From: a virus
Lineage: Duplodnaviria > Heunggongvirae > Uroviricota > Caudoviricetes
Direction: 5' to 3' (one strand)
IMG/VR virus record: IMGVR_UViG_3300006217_000002
Length of the DNA stretch: 64,000 bases
Position numbers and translations under genes: made by a program. Positions 11,729-47,381 of the stretch are shown in pieces. The stretch's first letter is position 1; the number at the start of each line of letters is the position of its first letter. The notes below the pieces were generated by a model. That model was not told where the DNA came from, made no database searches, and saw only the letters and a program-made list of their open reading frames with translations.

Positions 11729-14026
11729 ATGGCTGGTAGAACAGTACTTCCTAGTGGGGAAGAATTACAGGTAACACCTGAAGAAATACTGAGATATATA
11801 AACCCTGATGGCCTGAGACAATTGCTTCGACAAGAAAGATTGAGATGGAATCTTAAAACTAATAAGGATGTTGATTATTACGATAATACTCGTTTAAGCA
11901 AACATTCTGGAGAAGCTCATAATGAAGGATTGTATCAGAGATTAGAAATAAGGACGTTTCCTGATAACGGAGCAAATGCTGGATATACCGGTATTAATAA
12001 TGATAGCGGATTATTCGGTCTTCCTCATAATGTCGAATTATGGGATAAATCTATATCAGAAGAATCACTGAAAGAAATAGTAAATAGAACTACAATAGGT
12101 TCTCTTGCTAAAATTCCTGGTAAAAGTGGTTATGGTCTTGATGATAATGGCAAGATGACTACTGATACAGATAATAGAATTGCTTTAATCTTATTCGATC
12201 CTGAAGATGGAAGAGCTTATTTATTATCGAATGATGATCCGAATTATGTAAATAATGAAACTAGATCAGTAGATCAAAGGATTCCTGAACGTGCTGTAGC
12301 AAGAATTGGAGATATACCAACACGAATGGCACAGCTTGAAAATGATTTTGACATGGTAGCTGATCCTGACTATGTTCATACCGATAACAACTTCACAAAC
12401 TCAAACCGTTTTATTCTTGATAATATTGATGATAGAACGTTTGTTTATCCCGAGATTGCTCGTGATAAAAATGGTGGAGATTTTATCGAGAATTATCGTG
12501 TTGGATTAAATGGCGAACCAGACTATGACGAATGTGATGGTTTGCTTACACCTAATTCACAACCTGATTTAGGTGTCAATCCTGATCTTGGTAAGTATGG
12601 AGATAGATTTGGAGAAGCAATATCTTCATATAATAAAAACATTAATTTCTCTGGAGTAAATCATCGAAAAGGTTATCTTCCTGGAATATTCAGATCATTA
12701 GAAGAATTGGAGCGAGTGGATTTGATTGATCAAACTATGACTCCAAGAACTCATCAAGATACACCTGGAGCTAAGAGACCTAATAATTATTACATCTTTG
12801 ATGGGAAATGGTCTCCTAATTGGTTTGATAGAATTATGTATAATGATTCTTATCTTGCTCAATCTCTTAACCCAAGCAATATGGAATTAAACGTGCCTGA
12901 TGTTGAGCCGACCCCTTTTGGAAAATTAGATCAAAGCGAAGATAAGTTTAACATGGGAAAATTATATCAGTGGAGATACAATAGAGTTACGCTTAAATAT
13001 CTATCTGAAGATATCACATGTAGTATTGTAGAATCAGGTGAGCAATATAGAGTTGGAGATATTTTAAGATGGAGCTTCGCTGATGATAGTTTTGTGTTTG
13101 AAGTTACGATGGTGGGAGCTAATGGGCAAATTCAAAGAGGTGAATTTAAACCTGAAGCAAATAGAGTATATGAGCAGGATCCATCTACACATGGTGTTGG
13201 GGTTCCATTTGCTAATACAAGCGGAGTAGGTCATGGAGCTAAGATTGCTATCAACTCAAAGGTTACAATTGAAACTCATGCATCTCAGATAAAAAATAAT
13301 TTGTATGCATATGTGGATATAACACCTACAGTTAGATCTGATAATTCACTTCCGTGGAGTGATACTAAATCGTCAGATGATCAAGATGGTAAAGTGGTTG
13401 TAAGATCTACAGCTGCTGGTCCTGCTTATTCTGGAATTAATTCTGGTAGAGGAGGTCCTGCTCCGGATGAATTAACTTCTGATACTGTATTCTATGAGCA
13501 TGGAGGAAATGCAACAGCTGGTGTTCACGTACATTTATTTAGATACGTAATTGATACTGAAAATCCGACATGGGTTATTAGAAATGGAATTCAGATATTT
13601 ACTGGTAGATGGGTTGATCAAGGTCCTATGGGTATTGAAAGACCTTGTGATATTAAAGCATTATTATTCTCTAATCCTGATACGAATAACTTCAATAACT
13701 ATTATAAGTTCTTAATGGATACTATGTTTGATACAATGAATCGTAATCCTGATACAGTTATTACTAATGATAAGAATTCTATTACGAATGCATATATTCA
13801 TTATGATCAAGAGGATCCTGAACCTGATCAGAAATTCTATCAATGGAAGATTAATCCTGAGACATCACAAGTTAGCAAAGTAGATATAACTGAAAAAGTT
13901 CTATATATTAACCTTGCTACTGGAATTACTTTTGTATATAATCAGTCATTCAAGAATGATCCGAAATATGGTTATGGTATGAGAGCTCCTGGATGGGTTG
14001 CTATTGCAGGCGCAGTTTCAAAATAA
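11729..14026 (+). CDS. Hypothetical protein, probable virion (tail/baseplate-associated) protein
   Basis: 765 aa; YVHTDNNFT and GEQYRVGDIL motifs seen in fibre and structural proteins; Gly/Asn/Asp-rich. Confidence 0.5.
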   Translation: MAGRTVLPSGEELQVTPEEILRYINPDGLRQLLRQERLRWNLKTNKDVDYYDNTRLSKHSGEAHNEGLYQRLEIRTFPDNGANAGYTGINNDSGLFGLPHNVELWDKSISEESLKEIVNRTTIGSLAKIPGKSGYGLDDNGKMTTDTDNRIALILFDPEDGRAYLLSNDDPNYVNNETRSVDQRIPERAVARIGDIPTRMAQLENDFDMVADPDYVHTDNNFTNSNRFILDNIDDRTFVYPEIARDKNGGDFIENYRVGLNGEPDYDECDGLLTPNSQPDLGVNPDLGKYGDRFGEAISSYNKNINFSGVNHRKGYLPGIFRSLEELERVDLIDQTMTPRTHQDTPGAKRPNNYYIFDGKWSPNWFDRIMYNDSYLAQSLNPSNMELNVPDVEPTPFGKLDQSEDKFNMGKLYQWRYNRVTLKYLSEDITCSIVESGEQYRVGDILRWSFADDSFVFEVTMVGANGQIQRGEFKPEANRVYEQDPSTHGVGVPFANTSGVGHGAKIAINSKVTIETHASQIKNNLYAYVDITPTVRSDNSLPWSDTKSSDDQDGKVVVRSTAAGPAYSGINSGRGGPAPDELTSDTVFYEHGGNATAGVHVHLFRYVIDTENPTWVIRNGIQIFTGRWVDQGPMGIERPCDIKALLFSNPDTNNFNNYYKFLMDTMFDTMNRNPDTVITNDKNSITNAYIHYDQEDPEPDQKFYQWKINPETSQVSKVDITEKVLYINLATGITFVYNQSFKNDPKYGYGMRAPGWVAIAGAVSK

Positions 14027-14028
14027 AA

Positions 14029-14061
14029 AATAATGGGGAGCTGTTAGAGCTCCCCATTATT
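14029..14061. terminator. Bidirectional terminator
   Basis: aataatggggagct/agctccccattatt between convergent genes. Confidence 0.8.
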
Positions 14062-15232: not shown

Positions 15233-15290
15233 AATCTCATCTCCTTTACTATATAATATTTTATCTTCTAGTCATAATATTAAACACATA

Positions 15291-15324
15291 TACAATAGGA
15301 TCCCATTAATGGGATCCTATTGTA
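15291..15324. terminator. Terminator hairpin after the 1086-aa gene
   Basis: tacaataggatcccat/atgggatcctattgta palindrome. Confidence 0.75.
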
Positions 15325-15331
15325 TCTATCA

Positions 15332-18300
15332 CTACTCGTCTTTCTTAGGTTCATCTTCTATTGGTCCGTTTAGTATATCACCTTTTTGGATCATCATCTG
15401 AATATAAGTATCAAAAGTATCACTTAATACTTCCTTAAGTTGAATCTCTCCATTTGAATCTTCAGCTCGATACACCTTTTTGTCTTTGATATTGAACACT
15501 CTAAGATCTTTTGGAGTAGCAGCAAATATGAGCATTTCGTCAAGATGTTTGTTATTAGCATTTAATTTTCGTAATTCCGCCACCTGGAAAAATGTTAAAT
15601 CTCCGGCTAGTACACATAACATAGGATTAGCAAGACGATAGAAATATCTCATCTCATGTGGAACGAATGGATACGAATCATGAAATGCATCCTTATCAAA
15701 TATACTACCGAATGTATTTCTAGAATTATATTCTTTGCTCCATTCGATAAATGCAATATATAACTTCTTACGTCTCACTCCATTTTTATCCGACTCTGCT
15801 CTATCTGCTTGTTTTGGTAATGATTCTTTTTTTGGCTCAGGGTTTTCTTCCTTTACTTCTTCTTCGTTAGGAGTTTCGTTACCAACTTCGTTATTCTGAT
15901 CACTATTACCTGAAGTATCTGTCCCTGCATCTTTTTCATCCTCACTTTCTTTATTAGTAATTTTATCATCGCTTTCCGATTGTTCATCTACAACGTTGTT
16001 ATCCAATTCAGGAGGTGAGTCTATCTCTTCATCGAGAACATTTTTTTCTTCCACAGTATCAAGTTCAGGAGGATCTTCAATATCAGCTTCTGTGAAAACT
16101 TTTCCTTGAGGTATCACTCGTTCACAAAGAACTTCAGTTCTCCAGCTTTGATTTTCCATACTTGAATATGCACTTGACTCAAATGATTTCCTGAATTCTT
16201 CATCATTCATAAATTGCTGTATCCAGTCGAATCCTTCCTTAATAGCTTGACCTTTGTCAAATAGTCGATCATCTTCCAATCTCCACGATTCAACATATTC
16301 TCCTAAACTCATTCCACATCTGTAATTAGAATGAGTAGCAAATACAATTCCATCATACTTATGTGAATTGATATCATTGTCATCGTTATAGACTTCTAAT
16401 ACAGCGTCTTTAATTTCATTCACACTATTGTATGGTCCATGAATACCAGATTGATCCTCCCAAGCATTCTCAAACCACCAAAATTTGAATGGACCTTTTG
16501 CTGCATTTTCTTCATTAAATGGAGCTTTCCAGTCAGCAGATAATTTGGCTTCCTTAGCAGCAGTTCTGAACCACGTAAGAGTATGAGAGTTACCTCCTAT
16601 AGGATTATCTTTACTGAACTCAACGAAGAAAATTTGTCCATTTATGATTCCAAGTGAATGAAATATAAATGCTTCAAATAATGCCTGATCATGGCAATTA
16701 CCTTTCTTTTCTACGTATACTTCTGATGGAAGTTTCAATTTCCATCCAGTGATAGTTTTATCGTACGAAATATTCTTATGCATCCATTCGTAAATTTCTT
16801 CTGGTGTATGTCCAATCTCATTTAATGTACTTGAGTTAAGTACAATTGCTTCATTAGACATAACACTTTCATTGAATGATTCATTTGCTGATTGGTTAGT
16901 ACTAAGAAACATATCATATTGAGAAGATAAACCATTATCAACTTTAGATTGACTTTCCTGTGAAATTTCAAAACCATGACTTTTATAGGTCTTTAATGCT
17001 ATCTCATTATCCATCTGAACTGATAATGCATCTACTCCATGATCGATTGCATAATCAAGTAATTGATGACTAAGTCCATATCCATTATAAGCATAAGCGA
17101 CATCCATTCCAGAAATCCATTTATGACCATCATCTTTATTGGGAACTTTGTCATATGTTATAGAACAAACATAGTTTCCTTGATCATCAACCCAGAGTAA
17201 ACACTCATCATCATATTTAGGATCATCATCTCTCATATATGAAATAAGTTTACCTTGATCAGCAAATTTCTTCGTGAGTTCCTTTGTTATTTTCATCATT
17301 GTGAAATCTGAAAGAGACTTAGTTCCTTTTGGTTTGAAATTTTCATCAACATTACTCTTCAGAACCTTGAAGTAGTCACTTTCATCAAACAGATTTATCC
17401 TCATACTCTCAAATATGTGTTGCTGAATAAAATGGAAATTTTCTGCAATTCTTTCATTGTAAACATTGTCGCGTTTCATAGTGTTGATTTCTTTTACAGT
17501 ATCACGATGAAACTGTTCAGCTTTAAAACCAATCTTTTTAGCTGCTTCAATATTTTCCTCTCTATCATCAAAGAAGATACATGTATGAGGATTTAACTTA
17601 AATCTATCAATAAGAAGTTGATAAATTTTAGGATCAGGTTTTTGACATCCAACATCATATGAAACTAATCCCCCATCAAATTGATCAAGATATTTAAATT
17701 TTCCTTTCTGCTTCATAAGTTCGAATCCACTTTTATGCCAATTGGAAAGATAATATAATTTGTATCCTTTATTTTTCAGCTCCTTGATCATGGAATCAGT
17801 ATAATCATATGCATCTCCAGATAATGCTAATATTTCAAAAATATCATCTGAATATTGTTTAATATCATCCGTAAGAAAAGATTGATATAATTTCTTAGCA
17901 TTGAAAATTGATGCAGTTTCATAATCCTCCAATTTGTCATAATAAGATTTTACAAAACAATCAAGCTGAGTCTCATTAAATTTATTATGATATTTCTTCT
18001 TGATTAATTCTTTTCCGCCTTTCGGTTCACTTAAAACAGAGCCTATATCGAATATAACTGTATCAACTCCATCGAAATCAAATCTTTCTGTGAACTTCTT
18101 TGTTTTAGTATCTTGGAAATAAAGTTCACCATGATGCCATACTGGCTCAATACTCAATTCTCTGAAATGTTTATTAAGATGAGCAACTATTTGTTTATTT
18201 TCTGGAGTATGATTTACAAGAACTCCCTGATTTCTAGCACATATGTATGCTGATCTTAATCCAGGTATAGATACGACTAACTGACCATTCTTGATAACGT

Positions 18301-18592
18301 GATGCGGATACTTACATCCAGATCTGCTAAATGGAGTACGACCATATGGACTATTTTTAATATCTTTTACAGGAGCTACTGCATATGCTTCTTTAAGAAA
18401 ACCAGGCCAATCACAGTAATCGCCAGATTTAATAGCAGCTTCTAAATCCTTAGGATTTGTAGGAATATCTCCTTTACAATACATTGCATCAAGAAGTTGA
18501 TCATATAGTTTAGCTCCAGGGTCTTTCCATTTACCTTTAATTATAGCTGCTTTTCTGCTATTATTAATTTTCAACACAATTAATTTTCCCAT
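15332..18592 (-). CDS. Multidomain protein: N-terminal domain + HAD phosphatase + GNAT acetyltransferase + transglutaminase-like domain + acidic linker + C-terminal domain
   Basis: HAD motifs FDIGSVL / LSNW / KPDPKIY / FFDDREEN; GNAT YNGYGLSHQLL...NEIALKTYKSHGF; TGase-like KKGNCHDQA...SHT...WFE. Confidence 0.8.
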   Translation of the reverse strand: MGKLIVLKINNSRKAAIIKGKWKDPGAKLYDQLLDAMYCKGDIPTNPKDLEAAIKSGDYCDWPGFLKEAYAVAPVKDIKNSPYGRTPFSRSGCKYPHHVIKNGQLVVSIPGLRSAYICARNQGVLVNHTPENKQIVAHLNKHFRELSIEPVWHHGELYFQDTKTKKFTERFDFDGVDTVIFDIGSVLSEPKGGKELIKKKYHNKFNETQLDCFVKSYYDKLEDYETASIFNAKKLYQSFLTDDIKQYSDDIFEILALSGDAYDYTDSMIKELKNKGYKLYYLSNWHKSGFELMKQKGKFKYLDQFDGGLVSYDVGCQKPDPKIYQLLIDRFKLNPHTCIFFDDREENIEAAKKIGFKAEQFHRDTVKEINTMKRDNVYNERIAENFHFIQQHIFESMRINLFDESDYFKVLKSNVDENFKPKGTKSLSDFTMMKITKELTKKFADQGKLISYMRDDDPKYDDECLLWVDDQGNYVCSITYDKVPNKDDGHKWISGMDVAYAYNGYGLSHQLLDYAIDHGVDALSVQMDNEIALKTYKSHGFEISQESQSKVDNGLSSQYDMFLSTNQSANESFNESVMSNEAIVLNSSTLNEIGHTPEEIYEWMHKNISYDKTITGWKLKLPSEVYVEKKGNCHDQALFEAFIFHSLGIINGQIFFVEFSKDNPIGGNSHTLTWFRTAAKEAKLSADWKAPFNEENAAKGPFKFWWFENAWEDQSGIHGPYNSVNEIKDAVLEVYNDDNDINSHKYDGIVFATHSNYRCGMSLGEYVESWRLEDDRLFDKGQAIKEGFDWIQQFMNDEEFRKSFESSAYSSMENQSWRTEVLCERVIPQGKVFTEADIEDPPELDTVEEKNVLDEEIDSPPELDNNVVDEQSESDDKITNKESEDEKDAGTDTSGNSDQNNEVGNETPNEEEVKEENPEPKKESLPKQADRAESDKNGVRRKKLYIAFIEWSKEYNSRNTFGSIFDKDAFHDSYPFVPHEMRYFYRLANPMLCVLAGDLTFFQVAELRKLNANNKHLDEMLIFAATPKDLRVFNIKDKKVYRAEDSNGEIQLKEVLSDTFDTYIQMMIQKGDILNGPIEDEPKKDE

Positions 18593-18808
18593 CTTACAAT
18601 CTCCTTTACTATAAAATTACAGGATGTTATTATCAGGTAACTTTTATTATTTCATTATAATAAAAATATATAATTTATGAATTCTGCAATACCATATATT
18701 AATCCTAGAAAGATTAATTAAAATGATTTAAATTGTCAAATTAATTAGTCTTTGAAATTGTGGGTTATATAAGTCATGATTACGTAACACCTCCCTAAAA
18801 TTGTTGAT

Positions 18809-18852
18809 ACAGAATGGCGGTTGGCCCTTAAATGGGCTGGCTGCTGTTTTGT
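18809..18852 (+). other. G-U-rich 19-bp RNA hairpin upstream of the helicase gene
   Basis: acagaatggcggttggccc / gggctggctgctgttttgt pairs fully only with 7 G-U wobbles on the + strand. Confidence 0.6.
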
Positions 18853-25067: not shown

Positions 25068-26501
25068 TTATCGACAATAGGTTTCTCTGATCTTATCAAG
25101 CAATGCTTGTACAGCAACCGGTTTAATATTTAATCTTTCATTGAGCTGAGACTTTACAAACGGAATCAAGTCAGAAGAAATTCCTACTTTTTCTTTTCCT
25201 CTTGTATTGATAGCTCTCATAAGATCTAATCCGTTTGATATATTTCTTTTTGTAGAAACGTCATATATTGTCCGAAGAGCTTCTACACTTTTAACGTACT
25301 TATGATTAGATTTAATAGGTTGCATTACAATACTACCAGCATTTCTTTCCTTTATACCAAACAGCCCAAATAGACCATAGTAAATTGAGTTACCTATAGC
25401 CTTGTAATATGTCGATTCCTTCATCGGATGGTGTCCTTTGAAATTCTTTTTGTAATTCCTATACATTCCTCTTGCTCTGATATCGTTAGTTACAATATTA
25501 GACATATATGAGATTACTTTTAGCATTTCATCATTATTAATAATCTCGTCATTCAACGGGTTATTTTCAATACTGACTGTAACATCACCATCCAATTCAG
25601 ATATATCTTTAGCAAACCTTGATTTATATCTAGACACTGTAGTTGCTTTAATTCCGAAAGCTTCAGCTGTTTTATCAATTCCATTCGTTTCAAGATATGC
25701 TAAAAATTCCTTCTTTCTGAATATATCCCACATAGGCTTAGACCCGTCAAGATCATCATCACAATTATATCCTTTCAGATCTATTCCTTTAATTTTTATA
25801 TGATGATATTTGTATCTATCAGTATGGAAGAAATCGTCTATGTTAAGATCTCTACATAAGGAATCAACAAACATCGGCATATCAATTTCATCAGCATCAA
25901 TAGATCTATCTGCACAATATTTATCAAATATATCTCTGATGTCTGATATAGGAATCTCAACTTCTGAATTAGATACAACTATATTTTCTTCTATGAAAGC
26001 TTTTATAACTTCCTTGCTGTCGATACTACAAAGTTTAGGTTTGTTATATTCCTTGCTATATATATCATCTATTTTCTTAGCTACAACCTCCTCTCCATGA
26101 TTTCTTAAATAAGAGGATATAGAAGGATTTGTTAATGTCAGCATTGATAAATCAAGATCTAACATAACGTCATCAGGTAACGTACATATGTACTTGTCTA
26201 ACATCTTAGGATGAGCAGGAAATATTTTTCTAGGCTGTGCATATGTAGTAGTGACGCTGAATACATGTTTTAGATCAATTCTAATATCAGTTTCATACCT
26301 TTTATGAGATGAGCATGGAATAACCAATATCGAGTGCTGATCAATAGTTTCGCTATCTTGTATTATGATAGCATATCTGTTAAATCTCAGAGTCATTTCA
26401 CCGACTTCTATGTCTTTTCTTCTGTTATCCTTCTTCTCTCCGTAAATTGGATCAGTCCACCTCCAGACTTGCCCTCTTATGAATCTCATTGTAGTCTCCA
26501 T
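25068..26501 (-). CDS. PemK/MazF-like domain fused to putative winged-helix and HTH domains
   Basis: RGQVW...NRYAIIIQ...ILVIPCSS...LDKYICTLPDDVMLDLD fits the PemK fold; later GIDKTAEAFGIKATTVSRYKSRF is an HTH. Confidence 0.65.
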   Translation of the reverse strand: METTMRFIRGQVWRWTDPIYGEKKDNRRKDIEVGEMTLRFNRYAIIIQDSETIDQHSILVIPCSSHKRYETDIRIDLKHVFSVTTTYAQPRKIFPAHPKMLDKYICTLPDDVMLDLDLSMLTLTNPSISSYLRNHGEEVVAKKIDDIYSKEYNKPKLCSIDSKEVIKAFIEENIVVSNSEVEIPISDIRDIFDKYCADRSIDADEIDMPMFVDSLCRDLNIDDFFHTDRYKYHHIKIKGIDLKGYNCDDDLDGSKPMWDIFRKKEFLAYLETNGIDKTAEAFGIKATTVSRYKSRFAKDISELDGDVTVSIENNPLNDEIINNDEMLKVISYMSNIVTNDIRARGMYRNYKKNFKGHHPMKESTYYKAIGNSIYYGLFGLFGIKERNAGSIVMQPIKSNHKYVKSVEALRTIYDVSTKRNISNGLDLMRAINTRGKEKVGISSDLIPFVKSQLNERLNIKPVAVQALLDKIRETYCR

Positions 26502-29110: not shown

Positions 29111-31135
29111 GTGTTTATGAAAGATATAAAAAGTCTTTACAACGAAGCGAGAAAAACTGGTAATGCATCAGATATTTCCGCATATCAAGAAGCAATTCAG
29201 ACTTATCTTGAGTGCAACCCCTATGGTTATATTTCAAACCTAGAATATATCATTACATCTGATATTGGGGCTAGTACTCTAAAAAAGTTTGTAGAAACAA
29301 ATGGTTTACCAATTTCTTGCTATGATAATGTTATGGAAGTGCTTGAAAAAGCAATCCATAAATGTGATATCTCAGGAAAAGACAGTTCATATTTCAAAGA
29401 GGCTGCTGACTGGTTATCTAACTATCGCAGGAAATATTTGAATTGCTTTATGATGTATGAATATTATACAGAAGAAGTAGATCCTAGATATGTTGAAACA
29501 TATTATGGTTTTAACGAATCTGGTATTCCTGGAAGAAAACTAGTGGCAGGAATGATTGATTCCTTTGGAGAGTCTGCTGTAGCAGATGCGTTAATTACAT
29601 CAAATACCATCGGGTCAGAATCTACAGCGATATTGCATGACTATTGTACGAATAAATACGCCGGTAATAAGATGATGTTCGAGTGGTTGGCAGTAACACT
29701 TAATGATTTATTTATTAAAAACTATGCAGAATCAGTAACAAGTAGTATTACCGATAATTCGCTATCACGAAAAGTAGCTGATAGTAAATCCGAAAAATGT
29801 AAAGTATATAGAGAATCTGTTATTTGTAATACTGATGCTGTATATGAATATTCCGAAGAAGAAATTGAAAATATTAAATCATTAATTGAGTTCAAAGAAT
29901 ATCAGTTAACTTGGGCAGATGAAATGACTGAAAGTAATATCATGGATATTCAGCATGAGATTTATGATTTATATGAAGAATTAGCTTCTGTCATATCAGA
30001 ATCAGACGCTGATCTTGTAGATATGCTTCCTGGAACTCCTGTAAAAGAAGGGGCTCCTTGGATAGTAAATACAAGGAACAAGAAAACTGGATCATCCCCT
30101 ACCTATATAGGTAGAAATCACGATATGGCTAAATACGGAGAAGATGATGATTCTGGAGAAGTTGTTAAATCTGATAATCCTGATATGAGCATGGATGATT
30201 ATAAACGTCCATCTGCTGGGGGTACTTCATCTCTTGATACTAATGATTTAGATGATGAAGAAAATAATTCATCTGAAGATAAATCAAGTAAAACTAATGA
30301 TAATACAAGCGGTGTTCAGAATTATTATTATTATACATACAATAATTCATTGAATAAAAATAGTAATTCTTTCAATAGGGATAATAGCTCTAAAGATGAT
30401 CATTCTATTCATAAATCATCTTATGATTCTTCTACTGGAAAACATGTTAATTCTCATAACAACAATGTAGAAGAAGTTAATAATAAAGAAGAAAAAGATT
30501 TTGAAGGATTAAAAGAATCTTCTCTTCCTTGGGAACTTAATATCGGTTTTGAAATCAAATCTATCAACGAAGCAGTAGGTGATGCTGATGATAACAAACC
30601 TGAATCAGATCATCCTATTAAAGATATTCTTACAGATATTGATAGAGCAACTGTAAAGAAGCAGCAACAGGCTAAGAAGAAAGTTCAGGATATTCAGAAT
30701 GTTGGTAGAGCTGCTATGAAACCTGTTAATAGAACTAAAGAGTGGATTGGAAACATGATAGGCAAGTGGAAGGATGCTGACGAAACTAATATCAAAGAGA
30801 AGATGGCCGATCCTCATGCTAGAAGTAATTTATTCACTGCTATTAAGAAATCTATTACAGCTGGATCTCTTCTCAAAGCAGGCCTACTTCTTAATCCTGT
30901 ATTTTTGTTTTTAACAGTTACTAGAGGTATCGGTAAAAACAAGAGAGAATTCAGAATCCGTAATGAAATGATAGGAGAAATCAAGACTGAAATTTCCATC
31001 ATTGATGAGAAGATTAAAGATGCTGATTCTAAAGGAGATAACAAAGCTAAGTATCAATTAATGCGTTTTAAAAACGAATTAAATAAGAAGCTGTTGAGAG
31101 TCGGTGGAGGTAAAAGATGGGCTAAGCTCATATAA
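29111..31135 (+). CDS. Probable head-associated protein upstream of the capsid gene
   Basis: 674 aa; many x-x-E-S/A motifs, low-complexity N/S/D linker, basic helical C-terminus. Confidence 0.55.
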   Translation: MFMKDIKSLYNEARKTGNASDISAYQEAIQTYLECNPYGYISNLEYIITSDIGASTLKKFVETNGLPISCYDNVMEVLEKAIHKCDISGKDSSYFKEAADWLSNYRRKYLNCFMMYEYYTEEVDPRYVETYYGFNESGIPGRKLVAGMIDSFGESAVADALITSNTIGSESTAILHDYCTNKYAGNKMMFEWLAVTLNDLFIKNYAESVTSSITDNSLSRKVADSKSEKCKVYRESVICNTDAVYEYSEEEIENIKSLIEFKEYQLTWADEMTESNIMDIQHEIYDLYEELASVISESDADLVDMLPGTPVKEGAPWIVNTRNKKTGSSPTYIGRNHDMAKYGEDDDSGEVVKSDNPDMSMDDYKRPSAGGTSSLDTNDLDDEENNSSEDKSSKTNDNTSGVQNYYYYTYNNSLNKNSNSFNRDNSSKDDHSIHKSSYDSSTGKHVNSHNNNVEEVNNKEEKDFEGLKESSLPWELNIGFEIKSINEAVGDADDNKPESDHPIKDILTDIDRATVKKQQQAKKKVQDIQNVGRAAMKPVNRTKEWIGNMIGKWKDADETNIKEKMADPHARSNLFTAIKKSITAGSLLKAGLLLNPVFLFLTVTRGIGKNKREFRIRNEMIGEIKTEISIIDEKIKDADSKGDNKAKYQLMRFKNELNKKLLRVGGGKRWAKLI

Positions 31136-31175: not shown

Positions 31176-31790
31176 ATGGAAATGGATACAAAGAGTATTA
31201 ATTTTTTTACTCGATATTTATCTGAAGCTCCTGATGAAACTCCACCAGATGTAGCTGCAGCTCAAGAAGATTCAGGAACACCTGATGTACCTGAAAATGG
31301 ACCAGACATTGATGCTGGACCTCCAGATATGTCAGATGATATAGGTGAAGAAACAACAGATGATGGACCACCAGATCTTGATGATAATTTTGATAGTGGA
31401 TTTGGTGGAGATGATACAAGTGATGAAGATAATCAGGAAGGAGAAGGATCTGATCCTGAAAAAGTTGATCTTGGTCTTGATGAAAAGGTATCAGCTATTA
31501 TGAATCAGCAACTATATCAGCGTTTTTTAAATCTGATTAGTTCCATCGCTAATCAATTAACGATGATTAAAAATAATAATGATATCTTATATACATTATC
31601 TGAAGACACATTGGAAACTGAATCTTCATTGAAGAAGCTGGATGAAAACATTCGTTTATACATTAAATACAACTTCGTTAATGAGAACTACAGTAAGAAC
31701 CTACTATTCTTTAACAAATGCTTGAATTTGTTAAAGTTACTTAATGACGCTTTCGATAAGAATATTCGGAAGGGAATAAAGGACTTGTAG
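31176..31790 (+). CDS. Acidic head protein, scaffold/core-like
   Basis: YLSE-A followed by D/P/G-rich repeats (D.GPPD) and a coiled C-terminus; immediately precedes the capsid gene. Confidence 0.55.
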   Translation: MEMDTKSINFFTRYLSEAPDETPPDVAAAQEDSGTPDVPENGPDIDAGPPDMSDDIGEETTDDGPPDLDDNFDSGFGGDDTSDEDNQEGEGSDPEKVDLGLDEKVSAIMNQQLYQRFLNLISSIANQLTMIKNNNDILYTLSEDTLETESSLKKLDENIRLYIKYNFVNENYSKNLLFFNKCLNLLKLLNDAFDKNIRKGIKDL

Positions 31791-31872: not shown

Positions 31873-33726
31873 ATGAATGGAAACAAAGTTAGCTGGTTTT
31901 ATGAATCAGCAAGCGAACGCGAAAGAAGTGGCTACACACCTAGCAAGAGTTCCTTCGGCGTTTATATTGGTGAAGGAATGAAAACATTCGATGAGCATTT
32001 CGAAGATCTGTACAATCAATACAAAGAAAGTCAGGGCATTGATATTAAACGTGATATCAATGGTATGATTGGTGACAGGACTTTCATGGAAAACTATAAA
32101 ACAGACCTTATGGCTCCTGTATTGGAAGGCTTCCAGGAAATGTCACCTAATGATCCTCATATCCAGAGTATCATTGAGAATGTTAACAGGTTCTGGGATA
32201 CTAAGGTAAAGACTTTCTCTGAGTCTGCTTCTATGCTCGGATTCCTTCCTATTTCCACACTGGAATTCCCTGTACTGGTTAAACAGTTCTTCAGTTCTAT
32301 TCTTAAGGATATTATTGAAGTTGAAACCACCAAGACTCCAAGTATCACGAAGCATGTTCGTACAACTTATCTGGTTGATAATCAGACCGGAGATGAGTAT
32401 GAATATCCTAAGTGTATGTTTGATGGCACATGGGAGAAGGTATTCGATGCTTCTAAGGGTCTGAAAATTCCTGAGAACGTTGTTCCTCTTACCAATGGTC
32501 GTCTATGGAAGCATGATATTATCGCAATGGCTGGCGGTGTTGCTGGTATCGATAGAATGAGCTTCCAGTTCAAGATTATTGCTATTCAGGCTTCTGTTGG
32601 TGGCAAGGATGAGGTCATTCCGCTGCGTGGAAATGGTATCACCGTTGAGTTCTCCACTAATGGTACTCTTGTTAATGGTGATCTGAACTTTGATTACAAT
32701 GGAACTTTAATTGACGATGTACTTGGAGGTCAGGTTGACTTCAAGAATGGTACGATTACAATTGCTTCTGCATCCGGTCAGGTTACTGGTGTAGTATTTA
32801 GCGGTTATCTTTCTAATGAGAAGAATCTGCGTCATGTATCCGTAAGAGAGAAGAGAGACATTCTGAAGTTCCAGATCGAAGATGGCCCTCGTTGGAATAT
32901 GCCGTTCTCTATCGAAGAGATCGAAGATGCTGCAGCTCTGCTTGATATTAATTACTACAATCGTATGGTTGATGAAATCGTTCGTACACAGGAAATGCAG
33001 GAGTGCATGACTGTTATTAAGTTCCTGAACGATGAATTCATGAAGTTCAATGGAGTAGAAACAGATACATTTAAGCTTGAGAGTGTTGCTCAGACATATA
33101 AGGTAGATCTGGATCCTGCATCTATGACACCTAACTTCGCTGGCGATCCTTACAAGTTCATGAGTACTGCAATTCAGTTCCGTCTGAAAGGTATTATTCA
33201 TCAGCTTATGGATATGACCAAGTTGGATGATATGTCCTTCATTATCGTTGGTAACCCGATGGCTTGCCAGCTGATCAATGAATTCGTTCAGTGGAAATCT
33301 CAGACTGGTTCTACCATCGGTGGTATCAGTGTAAACAACAGCTATGGCTTTGCAACAGATCTTGGTGCAAATATCCGTGTTGTAGCTACTAACCTGTATG
33401 ATGCATACACTGTTGATAAGGTTGATGATACAGGCGATCGTGAGCTTATCCTCCACATCTATGGTTATCCTACAGATGCAGAACATGTCAGCCAGCGTCA
33501 CCTTAAGTATACATCTCACCTGTTCACAAGTCAGAGCCAGACTGCATATCAGTCCACTCAGGCCCCTGGTGGTGCATACAACATCGTTACAGCAACAAGC
33601 CGCTTCAAGACTATCTCTGTTCAGGGCATTCAGGCTAGACTCGTTATGCTTAATAGTGATCGTGTATATGGTCCGGCTCCTAAGAGACCTCCTGTACTTG
33701 GTGCACCTTGGCAGGCTGCTGCGTAA
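31873..33726 (+). CDS. Major capsid protein precursor
   Basis: 617 aa; strong highly-expressed codon bias; Glu-rich N-terminal propeptide ending FSE-SA; AR9/phiKZ-like layout (SIEEIEDAAALLDINY, IIVGNP); followed by a strong terminator. Confidence 0.8.
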   Translation: MNGNKVSWFYESASERERSGYTPSKSSFGVYIGEGMKTFDEHFEDLYNQYKESQGIDIKRDINGMIGDRTFMENYKTDLMAPVLEGFQEMSPNDPHIQSIIENVNRFWDTKVKTFSESASMLGFLPISTLEFPVLVKQFFSSILKDIIEVETTKTPSITKHVRTTYLVDNQTGDEYEYPKCMFDGTWEKVFDASKGLKIPENVVPLTNGRLWKHDIIAMAGGVAGIDRMSFQFKIIAIQASVGGKDEVIPLRGNGITVEFSTNGTLVNGDLNFDYNGTLIDDVLGGQVDFKNGTITIASASGQVTGVVFSGYLSNEKNLRHVSVREKRDILKFQIEDGPRWNMPFSIEEIEDAAALLDINYYNRMVDEIVRTQEMQECMTVIKFLNDEFMKFNGVETDTFKLESVAQTYKVDLDPASMTPNFAGDPYKFMSTAIQFRLKGIIHQLMDMTKLDDMSFIIVGNPMACQLINEFVQWKSQTGSTIGGISVNNSYGFATDLGANIRVVATNLYDAYTVDKVDDTGDRELILHIYGYPTDAEHVSQRHLKYTSHLFTSQSQTAYQSTQAPGGAYNIVTATSRFKTISVQGIQARLVMLNSDRVYGPAPKRPPVLGAPWQAAA

Positions 33727-33855: not shown

Positions 33856-36126
33856 ATGGGAAGAATTAAAAGTAAAAAACAAGTTCGAGATGGTTTTTTA
33901 GGTGATCTCCCTGAATCAGTTCAGAATAGAGTTATGGCCGTTCATAAACTAGTAGTTGAAACAACAAATTCAGTTATGAAAAATAAAAACTACGAGGACA
34001 TAATCCATACTCAATGGGCAAAATCTATGTTAGATGAATTTCTAACTATGCCAGCTGATAAAAAACAAACTGGATCAGTTAGAGTATATAAACAAGGAAA
34101 ACGTTTCTCTTGTATGATACAGTTAACTGGTCATGTCACAAATGATAGAAACGATATTGATCATGAGTTATTCCATGATATGATTAGAAATATCCATGTT
34201 TCTATGAGATCTAAAGTAAGAAGAAAATTCGATATGACTCTTACATGTGAATCAGAACACGGAGAACATTTCGAAGGATTCGATGTATGGACCAAGCAAA
34301 AAGAAGCGAAGGAAATATGGGAACTCTTCAGCGATAAGACTACTAAAGATATCAGAGAGTTTAAAGAATCAGCAGACAATGACAGTGATAAAGAAGTAAT
34401 AATTGTAGAGTTTTCTGATCTTCCTGGTGGCATTCAAAAATTTGTGGAACATACAAAATCGCAGATTGTTGAATGTATCAATGAGTATGCACAAAAAAAT
34501 AGATATAATGCTTTATATGGAACTAAAACAGTGTATAAGAATTTTTTAAATAATGTATCTGGTAAATTACCAACATCTGTAACAATTGGAGATACTTATT
34601 TAAGAAGGAATTCTGATTATACGCATGAAGGAAGTATTGTTGTTACACCAGAACCAAATTCTACAATCACATCAGAATATTATGAATACATGAATTCTTT
34701 GGAAAATGAATTATTGATGGAAGTGTTTGAATCAGTTAATGAGAAAGTATCTCAAATTGATTTCACAAAAAAATTAGTTCTTACAGAGAATTCTATAGGA
34801 AAATATTTTGAGTTATATCTAACTCCTGAATATGCACAAAAACTATTTGAGTATTTTGAAGAAAGAGATGTTTGCAATGAAACTATTATAGCTGAAAGCA
34901 GCAAGAATGAATCGATTCCTGAATACAATACTGATATGACTGAAGCAGAGGCAAAACGTACTCTTCGTACATTATCTCAGGAAATGATTAATGGTATGAA
35001 GAATGATAAGAATTATAAGGTGACACAATACAAGGCTAATATTTATGCCAATATTATCACTAAGAATCTATTACCTAGATGGGCTAAAGGTTTTAGAAAG
35101 TTCTCCATCACTTTAGATTCATATCAATCATTCTTCACATTCGAGTTCAAAGTTCCCAACATGACTCAGGATTTTGTTTCTCGCTTCATTGAAGGAAGAG
35201 AATCTCTTAATGGATTCATTCATAGAAATTCTGAGATCAAGGTTAAAATGTCTCCGAGGATATTCCATACGATGGAAAATCCTGATGACGCATTTAATTT
35301 CTTCAAGAGTGCTATTAAGTATTATAACGAAGGAATCTTAAAAGCTGGAGACAAATTGATGGCTTCTGCTATGAAGATGAATAGAGAGATGAAACACTTG
35401 GTATCAACTACTAAATTGTCTGGTATTGTTACAATGCCTATGCAATTACTATTCGTATTTGATGATGTCAAGATGAGTAACAAAGATACATTCAAAGTAT
35501 CTCAGGAAGATATCAATGCAGTTAACTCGTTCATCAAAGGAATTTATACAAAATATGCATCTCCTGAAAAAGAAAAGAAACAGATAGTTGATGACGTAAA
35601 AGACATGGTTAAAGCTTTAAGAGAATATTGTGAGAATGATTTTAATATCACTCAGATATCTTTATTTCCCGAAGCGTTGGAAGAATACTTTGATGGTAAG
35701 ATGCAGCCTATTCTTGAATCATTTAACAGGTCATGGATATATGAACATCTTGACATGGACTGGGTAAATAAACAAAAGAATCCTCAAACTAAATATCTTC
35801 AGGAAAAGTTTGGAGTTAAGAAACTTAAGAAGATCCCTACCGATCTTGTAGCATACATCACTATTGAGACTGAATGTATTAAAGATTCAAACGATAAGAT
35901 GATGATTGCATCCTATTGTTTAGGGAAGATTGAAATTGTAGAATGGTATATTGAACTCCTTGAAGTAGGAAGTAAAAAATATATTGTACCTCATACAAAA
36001 CCTTATCTTGATTCAGTAAGAACTCAACTACTTGCATGCTACAAAAAAATTATGGAAACTCCGATTCCAAAATCAACCGACCGTCCATTGATTGACATTA
36101 AATATCCTTTAGGATATGAGGGATAA
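33856..36126 (+). CDS. Probable head/virion protein
   Basis: 756 aa; FKES, VFES, IAES, ILES motifs; ends IKYPLGYEG. Confidence 0.55.
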   Translation: MGRIKSKKQVRDGFLGDLPESVQNRVMAVHKLVVETTNSVMKNKNYEDIIHTQWAKSMLDEFLTMPADKKQTGSVRVYKQGKRFSCMIQLTGHVTNDRNDIDHELFHDMIRNIHVSMRSKVRRKFDMTLTCESEHGEHFEGFDVWTKQKEAKEIWELFSDKTTKDIREFKESADNDSDKEVIIVEFSDLPGGIQKFVEHTKSQIVECINEYAQKNRYNALYGTKTVYKNFLNNVSGKLPTSVTIGDTYLRRNSDYTHEGSIVVTPEPNSTITSEYYEYMNSLENELLMEVFESVNEKVSQIDFTKKLVLTENSIGKYFELYLTPEYAQKLFEYFEERDVCNETIIAESSKNESIPEYNTDMTEAEAKRTLRTLSQEMINGMKNDKNYKVTQYKANIYANIITKNLLPRWAKGFRKFSITLDSYQSFFTFEFKVPNMTQDFVSRFIEGRESLNGFIHRNSEIKVKMSPRIFHTMENPDDAFNFFKSAIKYYNEGILKAGDKLMASAMKMNREMKHLVSTTKLSGIVTMPMQLLFVFDDVKMSNKDTFKVSQEDINAVNSFIKGIYTKYASPEKEKKQIVDDVKDMVKALREYCENDFNITQISLFPEALEEYFDGKMQPILESFNRSWIYEHLDMDWVNKQKNPQTKYLQEKFGVKKLKKIPTDLVAYITIETECIKDSNDKMMIASYCLGKIEIVEWYIELLEVGSKKYIVPHTKPYLDSVRTQLLACYKKIMETPIPKSTDRPLIDIKYPLGYEG

Positions 36127-45026: not shown

Positions 45027-47381
45027 ATGTTTAGAGAAAAGTATAATCTTATTTATGAGCTTCAGAAAAAGAATGAAGAGCTCAAAGGTAAGAAAAAGTT
45101 ATCATTAATCGGACAAGGTGATTTTGCTGGTGGTAATAATGTAATGAGAGGTACGATGAACATTAAACACCATACTCAGCATCTTACTATTGATAAACCT
45201 GAATTTCCATTTGTTTATGATGGAAAAGAAAATGTAACTGGTGAGCATTCTTCATATCACAATGTAGCTGATAAGCCATACCAAGTAATAGAAATATGTA
45301 AGAAATATGATGAACTAATGAAAGGTCGATCATATTTCAGCCTCTATTTCTTATACTGTAAAGAAGACGATTCATATATTGTAATCGAAAGAAAAGAAGT
45401 AGAAAACTTAACAGAAAACTTTGGCTTCGATTATAATAATGACTATCTTGATTCTCTAGAGGTAGGGGAAGAAATTCCCAAAGGTACTATGATCAATACA
45501 TCCACATCATATGATGAATATGGAAATGTTGGAATAGGTGTTAACGGTCGTATCATTCATGGTATTCATCCAGCAGTTCAAGATGACGCAATCATTATTT
45601 CTAAATCATTTGCTAAACGAATGATCAGTAATAATATAACTACTAAGACAATACCGATTGGTGAGAGTACTATTCTATTGAATAAGTATGGTAGGGACGG
45701 CGAATATCAAGGTCTTCCTAATATTGGAGATATTATCACAGACAACATTATCTGTGCAACCAGACCAATTAAAGAAAACAGAATGTTCTCTGATCTTAGA
45801 GATATCTCTCTAAAACATATTAATGATCAATTGGATCAAGTATTCTATGGAAGTGGTGAAGTTGTAGATATCAATGTGTATTGTAACAATCCTGATATCA
45901 AAGTTAATAAAGTAAATAAACAATTGATCCGATATTACAACGATGCTAAGTGGTTCTATACTAAAGTGTATAAGATCTGTAATAAGATCATTAAATCTGG
46001 ATCTAAGAACATCGATAGAGAAATCTATAGATGGAAACGTAAAGCAATGAACTATCTTGATACTCAGGCTCTATGGGCATTTAATGACAATGTCTTTAGT
46101 AACATCATGGTAGAAATTATTATGCGTAAGAAAGAACCAATCATCGTTGGAAGAAAGATTGTAGGAAGGCATGGTAATAAAACTGTAAGCTGCTCTATTT
46201 GGGATGATGAAGAGATGCCATATCTTACTACAGAAAGTTATAAAGACGAGTATGGAGTAGTTCACGCTAAAGGTGTACGTGAAAGAGTAGATATGATTGC
46301 TAATCCATTAGCAATTGTTAATCGTACGATTGCAATGGTTATGGAAGAGGGTAGTTGCACATTTATTCTTGATAGAGTAAGAAAACATGCAGCTACACTT
46401 GATTCTATTGAGAAACAAAAAGATTTCATGTTTGATGTATTGAGGATCCTCAATCCTAAACAAACGAAAGATATAGAAAAGTTATACGAATCTTTATCAG
46501 AAAGAGAAAAGAAAAATTTCATCAATGATTGCATTTCAATTGATCAGAATGGATTACTCATAACGAATAATGGTCTATATATGAGATGGGAGCCTTTTAA
46601 TGATGAATGGTCATTAAGAGATGCTATTATTGAAATATATGAAAAGTATGGAGATATAATTAAACCATATCATGTATTTATGCCTAAGCCTAAATGGGGT
46701 CGTGACATTTATATCGGAGATGATTGTGTTGGATATCAGTATACAATGCTGTTAAAACAATCTGGCGAAAAAGGATTCTCCGTTCGTTCAGCAGGAGCTA
46801 TATCTGATGAGTCTTTACCTGAAAAGAGCCACGAGAACAAGATTGGAAAAAATTGGCATAGTGAAAAGCCTATACGTTTCGGCGAGTACGAAAGTCCTAA
46901 TTTCATGATCGTAACAAATCCTGAGGACTTTGCACTTATCAGTGCATTATACAGAACATCCGTTGACGGGAGAAGATTCATGTATGAAGCTATTCTGTCA
47001 GAAGATGGAGAATATAATATTCCTGATAACTTCACTTCTCGTAGTTCTGAGATACTTCAAGTATATTTAAAATCACTTGGAGTAAGAATGGAAACTATTA
47101 TTGACGAAAGTGAATACGTAGGAGAAGCAGAACATATTGATCAGGAAGTTCAGTTTGACATCGGCAAGGTATCAATATTCTGCACTATGGACGAAATGTA
47201 TTATCTAACAAAGATGCATAAAGTATATCAGAAATATATGAAAAAGCATCCTGGAAATATAGATGACCTTGATGAAGTATGGGAATACATTCTAGATAAT
47301 CTTCCTTTCAAAAAGAAAGAACTAACTGATAGGATTATAGATCTATTTAAAGATAATCTGGAAGCATTCTCAACATTCTAA
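45027..47381 (+). CDS. Phage multisubunit RNA polymerase beta subunit, C-terminal part
   Basis: QDDAIIISKSFA, GRKIVGRHGNK, DMIANPL..VNR, FSVRS.G, PIRFGEYE correspond to conserved RpoB C-terminal motifs; split beta is typical of phiKZ/AR9-like phages. Confidence 0.9.
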   Translation: MFREKYNLIYELQKKNEELKGKKKLSLIGQGDFAGGNNVMRGTMNIKHHTQHLTIDKPEFPFVYDGKENVTGEHSSYHNVADKPYQVIEICKKYDELMKGRSYFSLYFLYCKEDDSYIVIERKEVENLTENFGFDYNNDYLDSLEVGEEIPKGTMINTSTSYDEYGNVGIGVNGRIIHGIHPAVQDDAIIISKSFAKRMISNNITTKTIPIGESTILLNKYGRDGEYQGLPNIGDIITDNIICATRPIKENRMFSDLRDISLKHINDQLDQVFYGSGEVVDINVYCNNPDIKVNKVNKQLIRYYNDAKWFYTKVYKICNKIIKSGSKNIDREIYRWKRKAMNYLDTQALWAFNDNVFSNIMVEIIMRKKEPIIVGRKIVGRHGNKTVSCSIWDDEEMPYLTTESYKDEYGVVHAKGVRERVDMIANPLAIVNRTIAMVMEEGSCTFILDRVRKHAATLDSIEKQKDFMFDVLRILNPKQTKDIEKLYESLSEREKKNFINDCISIDQNGLLITNNGLYMRWEPFNDEWSLRDAIIEIYEKYGDIIKPYHVFMPKPKWGRDIYIGDDCVGYQYTMLLKQSGEKGFSVRSAGAISDESLPEKSHENKIGKNWHSEKPIRFGEYESPNFMIVTNPEDFALISALYRTSVDGRRFMYEAILSEDGEYNIPDNFTSRSSEILQVYLKSLGVRMETIIDESEYVGEAEHIDQEVQFDIGKVSIFCTMDEMYYLTKMHKVYQKYMKKHPGNIDDLDEVWEYILDNLPFKKKELTDRIIDLFKDNLEAFSTF

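Follow-up and report, generated by a model that had tools for sequence, protein, structure and literature searches.

P0001, a modular multi-enzyme protein of gut jumbo phages, and its possible packaging and processing in the prohead

The closest described systems to the gene considered here are of three kinds. Polyvalent proteins (Iyer et al. 2017, PMC5512222) carry unrelated domains on one phage-encoded polypeptide, shuffle their domain combinations between relatives, and have been proposed to accompany the DNA and then to be split into their domains; these authors draw the analogy with polyproteins, yet invoke embedded peptidases for the release (PMC5512222). The internal proteins IPI-III and Alt of phage T4 are packaged in the head, ejected, fast-evolving and host-directed (PMC9026906), and the T4 prohead protease gp21 cuts after Glu at L/I-x-E, with Asp at P1 blocking processing (PMC9026906). 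Finally, phiKZ, 201phi2-1 and SPN3US are jumbo myoviruses with a multisubunit RNA polymerase (RNAP) and dozens of internal head proteins (PMC10052503, PMC5694885); the SPN3US protease gp245 cuts after Glu at A-x-E with Ser at P1′ (PMC10052503), and gp175 of phiKZ likewise cuts after Glu (PMC9026906, PMC10052503). Here we analyze a gene at positions 15332-18592 (minus strand; 1086 codons without a stop) of a 64,000-nucleotide stretch of tailed phage DNA (IMG/VR record IMGVR_UViG_3300006217_000002, "the window" below). It encodes a protein of 1086 amino acids (aa) that we call P0001.

Like the polyvalent proteins, P0001 joins unrelated domains on a single chain, its family shuffles the domain combinations, both groups include GNAT, NUDIX and kinase domains, and the same fate, travel with the DNA followed by separation of the domains, is proposed for it. 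We give an even chance to the proposal that P0001 is packaged in the head, where the prohead protease divides it into separate enzymes. In that case P0001 would be built into the prohead, with its N-terminal KYPHH domain and/or its acidic PPxLD linker plus C-terminal SUKH domain as the loading address; a Glu-specific prohead protease would cut [FY]-x-E/[SA] (the slash marks the bond cut) in the linkers between the enzyme cassettes, the candidates in P0001 being E404, E575 and E835; and the freed enzymes would be ejected with the DNA, their targets early in infection being small molecules or proteins of the host. Association of P0001 with the head is proposed because of the homology of its N-terminal module and because of a linear motif common to it and a scaffold-like protein. 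A more specific version, in which a dedicated loading route docks the borrowed KYPHH module, the PPxLD linker and the SUKH domain on a scaffold-like core and the capsid protease then processes the polyprotein, is tentative and in our opinion rather doubtful.

Constant ends and shuffled enzyme cassettes

P0001 consists of three enzyme domains between two non-enzymatic end modules. From its N-terminus these are the N-module ("KYPHH", residues 1-160; 18113-18592, minus strand like all P0001 features below; delimited by alignment and an AlphaFold2 (AF2) model), a HAD phosphatase-like cassette (residues 172-365; 17498-18079), a GNAT acetyltransferase cassette with a conserved leader (residues 412-560; 16913-17359), a transglutaminase (TGase)/papain-like Cys-His cassette (residues 585-782; 16247-16840), and, beyond an acidic linker, the C-module (residues 926-1080; 15353-15817). 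Pfam finds HAD at residues 176-357 (E 2.5e-17; 64.3 bits, cut-off 26.4), GNAT at residues 457-549 (E 2.4e-6; 28.2 bits, cut-off 20.7) and, at residues 595-663, both DUF553 (E 3.5e-5; 23.7 bits, cut-off 20.5) and Transglut_core (E 8.3e-5; 23.3 bits, cut-off 23); PHROGs concurs on the HAD and GNAT calls. An earlier reading made from the sequence only had named the same three enzymes at coordinates that agree with those of Pfam, in an open reading frame (ORF) that is real; its account did not include the C-terminal SUKH module, the acidic PPxLD linker or the split forms of the gene described below.

The cassettes look catalytically competent. HAD motif I reads F-D-I-G-S-V, with the nucleophile Asp present and Gly at Asp+2, which we take to resemble the YihX-like variant. 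The acetyl-CoA loop of the GNAT cassette, N-G-Y-G-L, is conserved (x-x-G-x-G/A type), and the Cys of GNCHDQ and the His of HT in the TGase-like cassette are retained in at least 90% of 73 homologs.

A homolog search covering 5.8 billion proteins retrieved 262 homologs of P0001, and the following module counts are from 120 listed homologs mapped onto it. The ends are nearly constant: the N-module (residues 1-~150) is present in 109 and the C-module (residues 924-1080) in 110 of the 120. The middle varies. HAD occurs in nine homologs, GNAT in about 30-40, and the TGase-like module, the commonest cassette, in about 75 (about 60%), while NUDIX, P-loop kinase or SET domains are found elsewhere in the family, as are long segments without any family match. 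The expectation that the ends would stay constant while the enzymes vary was thus borne out.

The family belongs to gut jumbo phages of ~270-290 kb, and each of four complete relatives (270-292 kb) has exactly one N-module and one C-module. No paralog of P0001 was found within the 64-kb window. In two relatives the locus is divided: that of G003 comprises two adjacent ORFs, one with the N-module and cassettes (1098 aa) and one running from TGase to C-module (1485 aa; L008 2785-10561), and that of G002 comprises three overlapping ORFs (L007 5441-10540). The division in G002 could stem from a frameshift or from an assembly error, or could be genuine; given such split loci, the N- and C-modules can function on separate chains. 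It is firmly shown that the family combines constant KYPHH and SUKH ends with shuffled cassettes in one gene per genome. The phages of this gut jumbo clade are contractile-tailed, encode a multisubunit RNAP and possess a T4-type prohead protease; that P0001 is their fast-evolving "cargo" protein is a reading to which we give an even chance.

The linkers are less regular than the ends. A helix element of ~30 residues (I-E-x-N-F-x-x-I-x-x-x-I-x-E-x-T-G-I-N-L-F...) normally lies directly after the N-module. In P0001 the HAD cassette is inserted between these two parts, which are usually contiguous elsewhere, so that the junction element (I-x-E-N-F-x-x-I-x-x-x-I-x-E ... N-L-F-D-E-S) occupies residues 378-411 (17360-17461), where it holds the candidate sites I-F-E/S and F-D-E/S. 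A second, weaker copy, recognized by sequence similarity, follows the TGase-like module at residues 783-814 (16151-16246). Both copies of the helix that the sequence-only reading had seen in two linkers are therefore real, but the element does not serve as a universal cassette separator, as 178 of the 185 proteins that carry it have just one copy; the accompanying idea that linkers persist while enzymes change holds only in part for the same reason.

Ties to the prohead and candidate protease sites

The N-module has KYPHH at residues 94-98 and H-x3-H at residues 138-142. Its invariant residues (N11, W22, P25, E68, Y70, C93, P96, H97, H98, H138, H142 and E145) suggest a metal or active site. 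A zinc-finger reading of C93/H97/H98/H138/H142 is weakened by YonD-type homologs that do not have Cys93. The AF2 model is confident (predicted local distance difference test score, pLDDT, 91.8), but the module has no counterpart among solved folds: a Foldseek comparison with the PDB gave nothing at E ≤0.001, the best match of a wider fold search (Z 4.7) was the C-terminal part of GrpE and covered only residues 109-175, and a hidden Markov model search against the PDB gave no credible match.

An exhaustive profile search with the N-module returned 313 cluster representatives, whose distant members are proteins of ~480-630 aa with the module in a central position. The module aligns, for example, with residues 203-309 of a 554-aa protein (hhalign 99.8%, E 2.5e-30) whose gene lies directly 3′ of the portal gene in a 75-kb gut phage. 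The order in such proteins is YonD_N (PF27290, with invariant Asp/His/Ser/Glu), KYPHH domain, acidic stretch and coiled-coil tail, an architecture present in at least 498 protein clusters and carried by SPbeta-like gut siphophages of ~100 kb. Their genes lie between the portal and capsid genes, in SPbeta-type head operons, in all contexts examined (L023, L024, Enterocloster phage PMBT24 and Thomasclavelia phage TR-TP1). In Bacillus phages Thrax3 and Thrax5, proteins annotated as prohead protease match the YonD_N part; YonD_N and DUF2213 form look-alike clusters, and a fold search of the ESM Atlas also returned a Mu-like_Pro (Mu gpI) cluster (TM 0.51). Searches of Pfam and PDB sequences gave no match for YonD_N as a protease, and functional or proteomic data on DUF2213, YonD, PMBT24 or TR-TP1 were not found in the literature. 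Head-maturation proteins are thus the sole other home of the KYPHH module, and the earlier suggestion that it resembles a domain fused to such proteins is corroborated by the alignment and by the position between portal and capsid genes. This homology would be the main, though indirect, tie of P0001 to the prohead. We also note that in PMBT24 (L025 5217-5717) and TR-TP1 (L026 4455-4970) a ferritin-like gene lies between the portal and YonD_N-KYPHH genes.

At its other end, P0001 has an acidic low-complexity linker with repeats (residues 836-925; 15818-16087) followed by the C-module. The linker contains two D-P-P-E-L-D motifs (16058-16072 and 16001-16015), and the family version of this repeat, [DE]-x-P-P-[SED]-[LMI]-[DPE], stands ahead of the C-module: 77 of the 82 PPx[LMI]D matches in the family fall within this pre-C linker zone, which makes up 17% of residues. 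Between mouse-gut samples the gene varies most in the linker, at 15856-16169 (residues ~808-912), where a patch of 95 nt (16073-16169) has diverged and several small indels occur (15856-15973). In the complete relative G001, the sole other protein with repeated PPxLD in an acidic context is a scaffold-like protein whose gene adjoins that of the capsid protein. Its counterpart in the window is a 204-aa acidic protein (31176-31790, plus strand) encoded between a head-module ORF and the capsid gene. The acidic N-terminal half has three to four PP[DE][MLI] repeats that are kept in five of five phages, a [FY]-x-E/A-P site is conserved near residue 17, and the C-terminal half is helical and strongly conserved.

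The C-module has about 50 invariant alignment columns and a SUKH (SMI1/KNR4-like) fold. Its AF2 model has pLDDT >90 over model residues ~40-180, and its top Foldseek matches are all SUKH proteins, namely 3d5p (BF1740), Knr4, YobK (2prv), Syd (3ffv), FBXO3 and 2icg (probability 0.63-1.0, TM 0.45-0.62, best E 1.3e-3). By sequence it has no Pfam match at E up to 10, including the SMI1_KNR4 families, and no match in the PDB. Its identity between phages is 64-81%, compared with 68-77% for the capsid protein, which ranks it with the best-conserved proteins of the clade. Complex prediction for the SUKH module with the scaffold-like protein, made with custom alignments, scored 0.43 (runs 0.57, 0.43 and 0.43; contact agreement ≥68%, partner pLDDT ≥59), and the best of three controls scored 0.00. 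Of 80 solved complexes 58 attained the mark used, as did two of 110 mismatched pairs, but with scores ≤0.60 it was attained by just seven of the 80 solved complexes and by both of the passing mismatches, so the prediction weakly supports binding of the SUKH module to the scaffold-like protein.

A protease of the required kind is present in the clade. Peptidase_S77 (T4 gp21-type) was found in all four complete relatives (E 5e-8 to 2e-6, three over the cut-off) and is absent within the 64-kb window. The major capsid protein of the window (31873-33726, plus strand) has F-Y-E/S-A-S at about residue 11 and F-S-E/S-A-S at about residue 117, and [FY]-x-E/S-A-[SA] is kept at two capsid protein places in five of five phages. 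From these sites we derived the candidate motif [FY]-x-E/[SA]. It has four strict occurrences in P0001, of which three lie in linkers: F-D-E/S (404); F-N-E/S (575; residues 573-576, 16865-16876, in the GNAT-to-TGase linker), whose context recurs in homologs; Y-V-E/S (768); and F-T-E/A (835; residues 833-836, 16085-16096, at the start of the acidic linker), whose V-F-T-E/A context is among the commonest site clusters of the family. The first candidate site outside the N-module is at residue 395/404. All the Glu motifs that had been listed at the domain junctions are present, namely KFTE (166-169), IFES (393-396), FDES (402-405), ANES and FNES (569-576), IKEG (784-787), SFES (803-806) and FTEA (833-836); their registers are mixed, SFES for instance having its aromatic residue at P2 and not at P3.

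The case for the motif lies in the family and in the head genes. The variable middles of 147 members contain 347 copies of [FY]-x-E-[SA], 3.6 times the expected 95 ± 10, whereas permutations of the same composition occur 58-113 times, the motif with Asp at P1 82 times and that with Thr/Gly at P1′ 74 times; when homologous contexts are collapsed, 170 clusters remain against 43-59 for controls. Homology breakpoints are denser near the sites: at distances of up to 12 residues their density reaches 2.4 times the mean (median 2.2), while most control motifs give 0.8-1.9, any Glu gives 1.5, and [FY]-x-E-[KR], at 2.36, is nearly equal. The earlier suggestion that the junctions resemble the capsid sites thus stands for the family, where the motif is enriched at cassette boundaries, and not for P0001 taken alone, as detailed below.

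Within the window the two proteins most enriched in Phi-x-E-[SA] are head-module ORFs that match no family, one of 674 aa upstream of the capsid gene (29111-31135, plus strand; 11 sites against 2.7, nine of them within the first 300 residues) and one of 756 aa downstream of it (33856-36126, plus strand; seven against 2.3). The homolog of the 674-aa protein in G001 is 1043 aa long and has an insertion of ~300 aa. Among the 230 ORFs of G001 enrichment of the motif is highest in the gene upstream of the capsid gene, in the neighbor of the protease and in an ORF homologous to "internal head proteins" that has three sites in its first 90 residues; the G001 member of the P0001 family ranks sixth of 230, with four sites flanking its TGase-like cassette. 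The proposed cleavage of the family proteins by the prohead protease is supported by these specific, well-controlled motif statistics at the family level.

Alternative explanations and genome context

A number of observations weigh against packaging and dicing of P0001. The gene stands amid replication and nucleotide-metabolism genes; its synteny with those for a divergent helicase, a 765-aa ORF, Tmk and ThyX, and not with head genes, is conserved, and it is monocistronic with its own terminator hairpin (a terminator-like 16-bp hairpin directly after the stop codon, 15290-15325, minus strand). P0001 has no short N-terminal leader, residues 1-160 being occupied by a folded domain, and YonD_N, the partner of KYPHH in the head operons, is itself only putatively a protease. 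Among the sites, Y-V-E/S (768) falls within the TGase module, Phi-x-E-[SA] in P0001 alone (seven against 3.4 expected, p about 0.07) is not significantly enriched, site positions are not conserved across the family, and kinship of the members inflates the raw site counts, whose ratios and de-duplicated counts nonetheless hold. Giant-phage proteases are known to trim N-terminal propeptides from their substrates, and in SPN3US they leave ~80% of the head proteins uncut (PMC10052503). No description was found in the literature of a prohead protease that cuts an enzyme polyprotein between its domains.

The best of the other explanations, which we regard as possible but unlikely, is that P0001 is a cytoplasmic multi-enzyme protein for host takeover or anti-defence, made after infection and never packaged. 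Its end modules would then bind a host or phage partner, the SUKH domain for example neutralizing a host toxin or nuclease, and the excess of [FY]-x-E-[SA] would reflect linker composition or cleavage by a protease other than that of the head. The conserved synteny with helicase, Tmk and ThyX genes fits this view, as do the SUKH fold, best known from immunity proteins, and the fact that P0001 matches no known virion or internal-head PHROGs. Gene position is weak evidence, however, as jumbo-phage genes are typically scattered. The gene also stands alone behind an AT-rich upstream region with a 10/12 sigma-70-like match (18654-18681), which had been read as an early-type motif at 18663; such matches are no commoner in the window than in shuffled sequence (25 against 30.4), so the motif lends that reading nothing. 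Against a purely cytoplasmic role, KYPHH is otherwise confined to head-maturation proteins, the PPxLD repeats are common to the scaffold-like protein, and the motif excess is specific in register and residue (E over D, S/A over T/G), equals the capsid sites and marks head proteins genome-wide.

Other searches for expression signals assigned the gene to no expression class. Enriched k-mers upstream of genes in the window are only Shine-Dalgarno and AT-rich words, and a genome-wide promoter scan of G001 gave just a diffuse TATAT[TA]A word with no defined flanks or spacing. Footprinting indicated TAACCAT-N3-GTAAAA upstream of the capsid gene and GATTAATATAWRGTA upstream of the P0001 gene, but these motifs recur in the window no more than expected by chance (9 against 6.5 and 6 against 3.4). 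In two metatranscriptomic runs, contigs of 21-34 kb span the whole 19-kb stretch evenly, in a DNA-like manner; such contigs cannot rank genes, and these runs are therefore uninformative on expression.

It is less probable still that P0001 is a packaged or delivered polyvalent protein that is processed by its own Cys-His TGase/papain-like domain or stays unprocessed. That domain is the commonest cassette with a well-kept Cys and His, and embedded peptidases have been proposed to release polyvalent proteins (PMC5512222). On the other hand, about 40% of the members have no TGase-like cassette, Pfam assigns it to transglutaminase-like families and to no characterized processing peptidase, and sites equal to those of the capsid and head proteins are not the expected targets of a peptidase borne by the cargo. 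A mainly structural or assembly role for P0001 inside the head, as an inner-body or core-like component whose enzymes are secondary or inactive, is very improbable: the capsid-like conservation of the C-module, the single copy per genome and the acidic linker similar to that of the scaffold-like protein would fit, but the TGase-like and GNAT catalytic residues are conserved, rapid cassette turnover typifies conflict proteins and not structural ones, and split forms exist.

The rest of the window is that of a large contractile-tailed phage, with a tail sheath, a tube-like protein, the major capsid protein, a large terminase, two helicases, ThyX, Tmk and a multisubunit RNAP beta-like protein (45027-47381, plus strand; phrog_3295, E 1.3e-75; Pfam Rpb2 domain 6). 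On the basis of the last of these, the phage is placed among the RNAP-encoding jumbo phages. Public runs from at least 11 studies show it in the mouse gut. Near the P0001 gene, the 765-aa ORF (11729-14026, plus strand), convergent to it, has no Pfam or PHROG match and 67-73% identity in relatives, where it retains this position, and is a conserved core protein. A bidirectional terminator-like hairpin with a perfect 14-bp stem (14029-14061) separates this ORF from small minus-strand genes, and a 19-pair hairpin (18809-18852) lies between the P0001 and helicase genes. Farther away, a 477-aa protein (25068-26501, minus strand) has weak PemK/MazF-like, nSTAND NTPase and helix-turn-helix matches and may be a toxin-like or defence-like phage gene.

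Comparison with known systems

If P0001 is indeed packaged and diced, the role of prohead proteases would widen from trimming propeptides to dicing a multi-enzyme precursor, a phage counterpart to the polyprotein processing of RNA viruses. KYPHH and PPxLD plus SUKH would be two new address or anchor modules for the loading of large capsids, and a single-copy gene would catalogue the enzymes (TGase-like, GNAT, NUDIX, HAD, kinase, SET) that each phage injects first. They would also offer a route to loading phage capsids with foreign proteins, a natural, re-programmable chassis for protein delivery. The analysis also gives context to the very common, uncharacterized KYPHH domain of YonD-type head proteins in ~100-kb gut siphophages. 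Should P0001 turn out not to be packaged, the family still stands as a large, clear-cut and undescribed case in which cassettes are shuffled between conserved termini.

The YonD_N-type proteins share with P0001 the KYPHH domain, an acidic stretch downstream of it and E-N-F at the C-terminal edge of KYPHH. In these proteins of ~500-600 aa, KYPHH is flanked by a putative protease domain on one side and by a scaffold-like coiled-coil tail on the other; they are encoded inside the head operon and have no enzyme cassettes, no SUKH domain and no Cys93, whereas P0001 has no YonD_N part and is encoded outside the head operon. The SUKH superfamily (SMI1/KNR4, YobK, Syd, FBXO3) has the fold of the C-module. 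The SUKH module of P0001 has no adjoining toxin gene and is fused to the end of a multi-enzyme protein, and it is extremely conserved, whereas SUKH proteins of the immunity type diversify.

Compared with phiKZ and SPN3US, whose T4-like proteases (gp175 and gp245) act at x-x-E with Ser preferred at P1′ and cut long propeptides into several pieces, P0001 has no sequence homology to the ejection or inner-body proteins of phiKZ, 201phi2-1 or SPN3US; the cuts in those phages remove N-terminal propeptides at A/S/G-x-E, and the P0001 candidates are [FY]-x-E between cassettes. The comparison with the T4 internal proteins is similar. Packaging, ejection, fast evolution and a host-directed role are proposed for P0001 as well, and the site model proposed for it, an S77-family protease that cuts after Glu and disfavors Asp at P1, is the same. 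The T4 address, however, is an N-terminal peptide of ~10 residues cut at L/I-x-E, whereas P0001 begins with a folded domain of 160 residues; its candidate motif has an aromatic residue at P3, and its candidate cuts separate enzyme domains, a kind of cut not known for T4.

With respect to the polyvalent proteins, P0001 has none of their hub domains by Pfam or PHROGs (zincin MPTase, ArdC-N, ART, SNF2, N6A-MTase, DdrB-ParB or MuF), nor does Pfam find a portal domain in it. Its KYPHH and SUKH anchors are not in the account of Iyer et al. (PMC5512222), which mentions neither SUKH nor transglutaminase. Release of polyvalent domains is attributed there to an embedded peptidase (PMC5512222), and for P0001 it is proposed to occur in trans, by the prohead protease. 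Set against the literature, the family is an extension of the polyvalent, head-packaged effector proteins.

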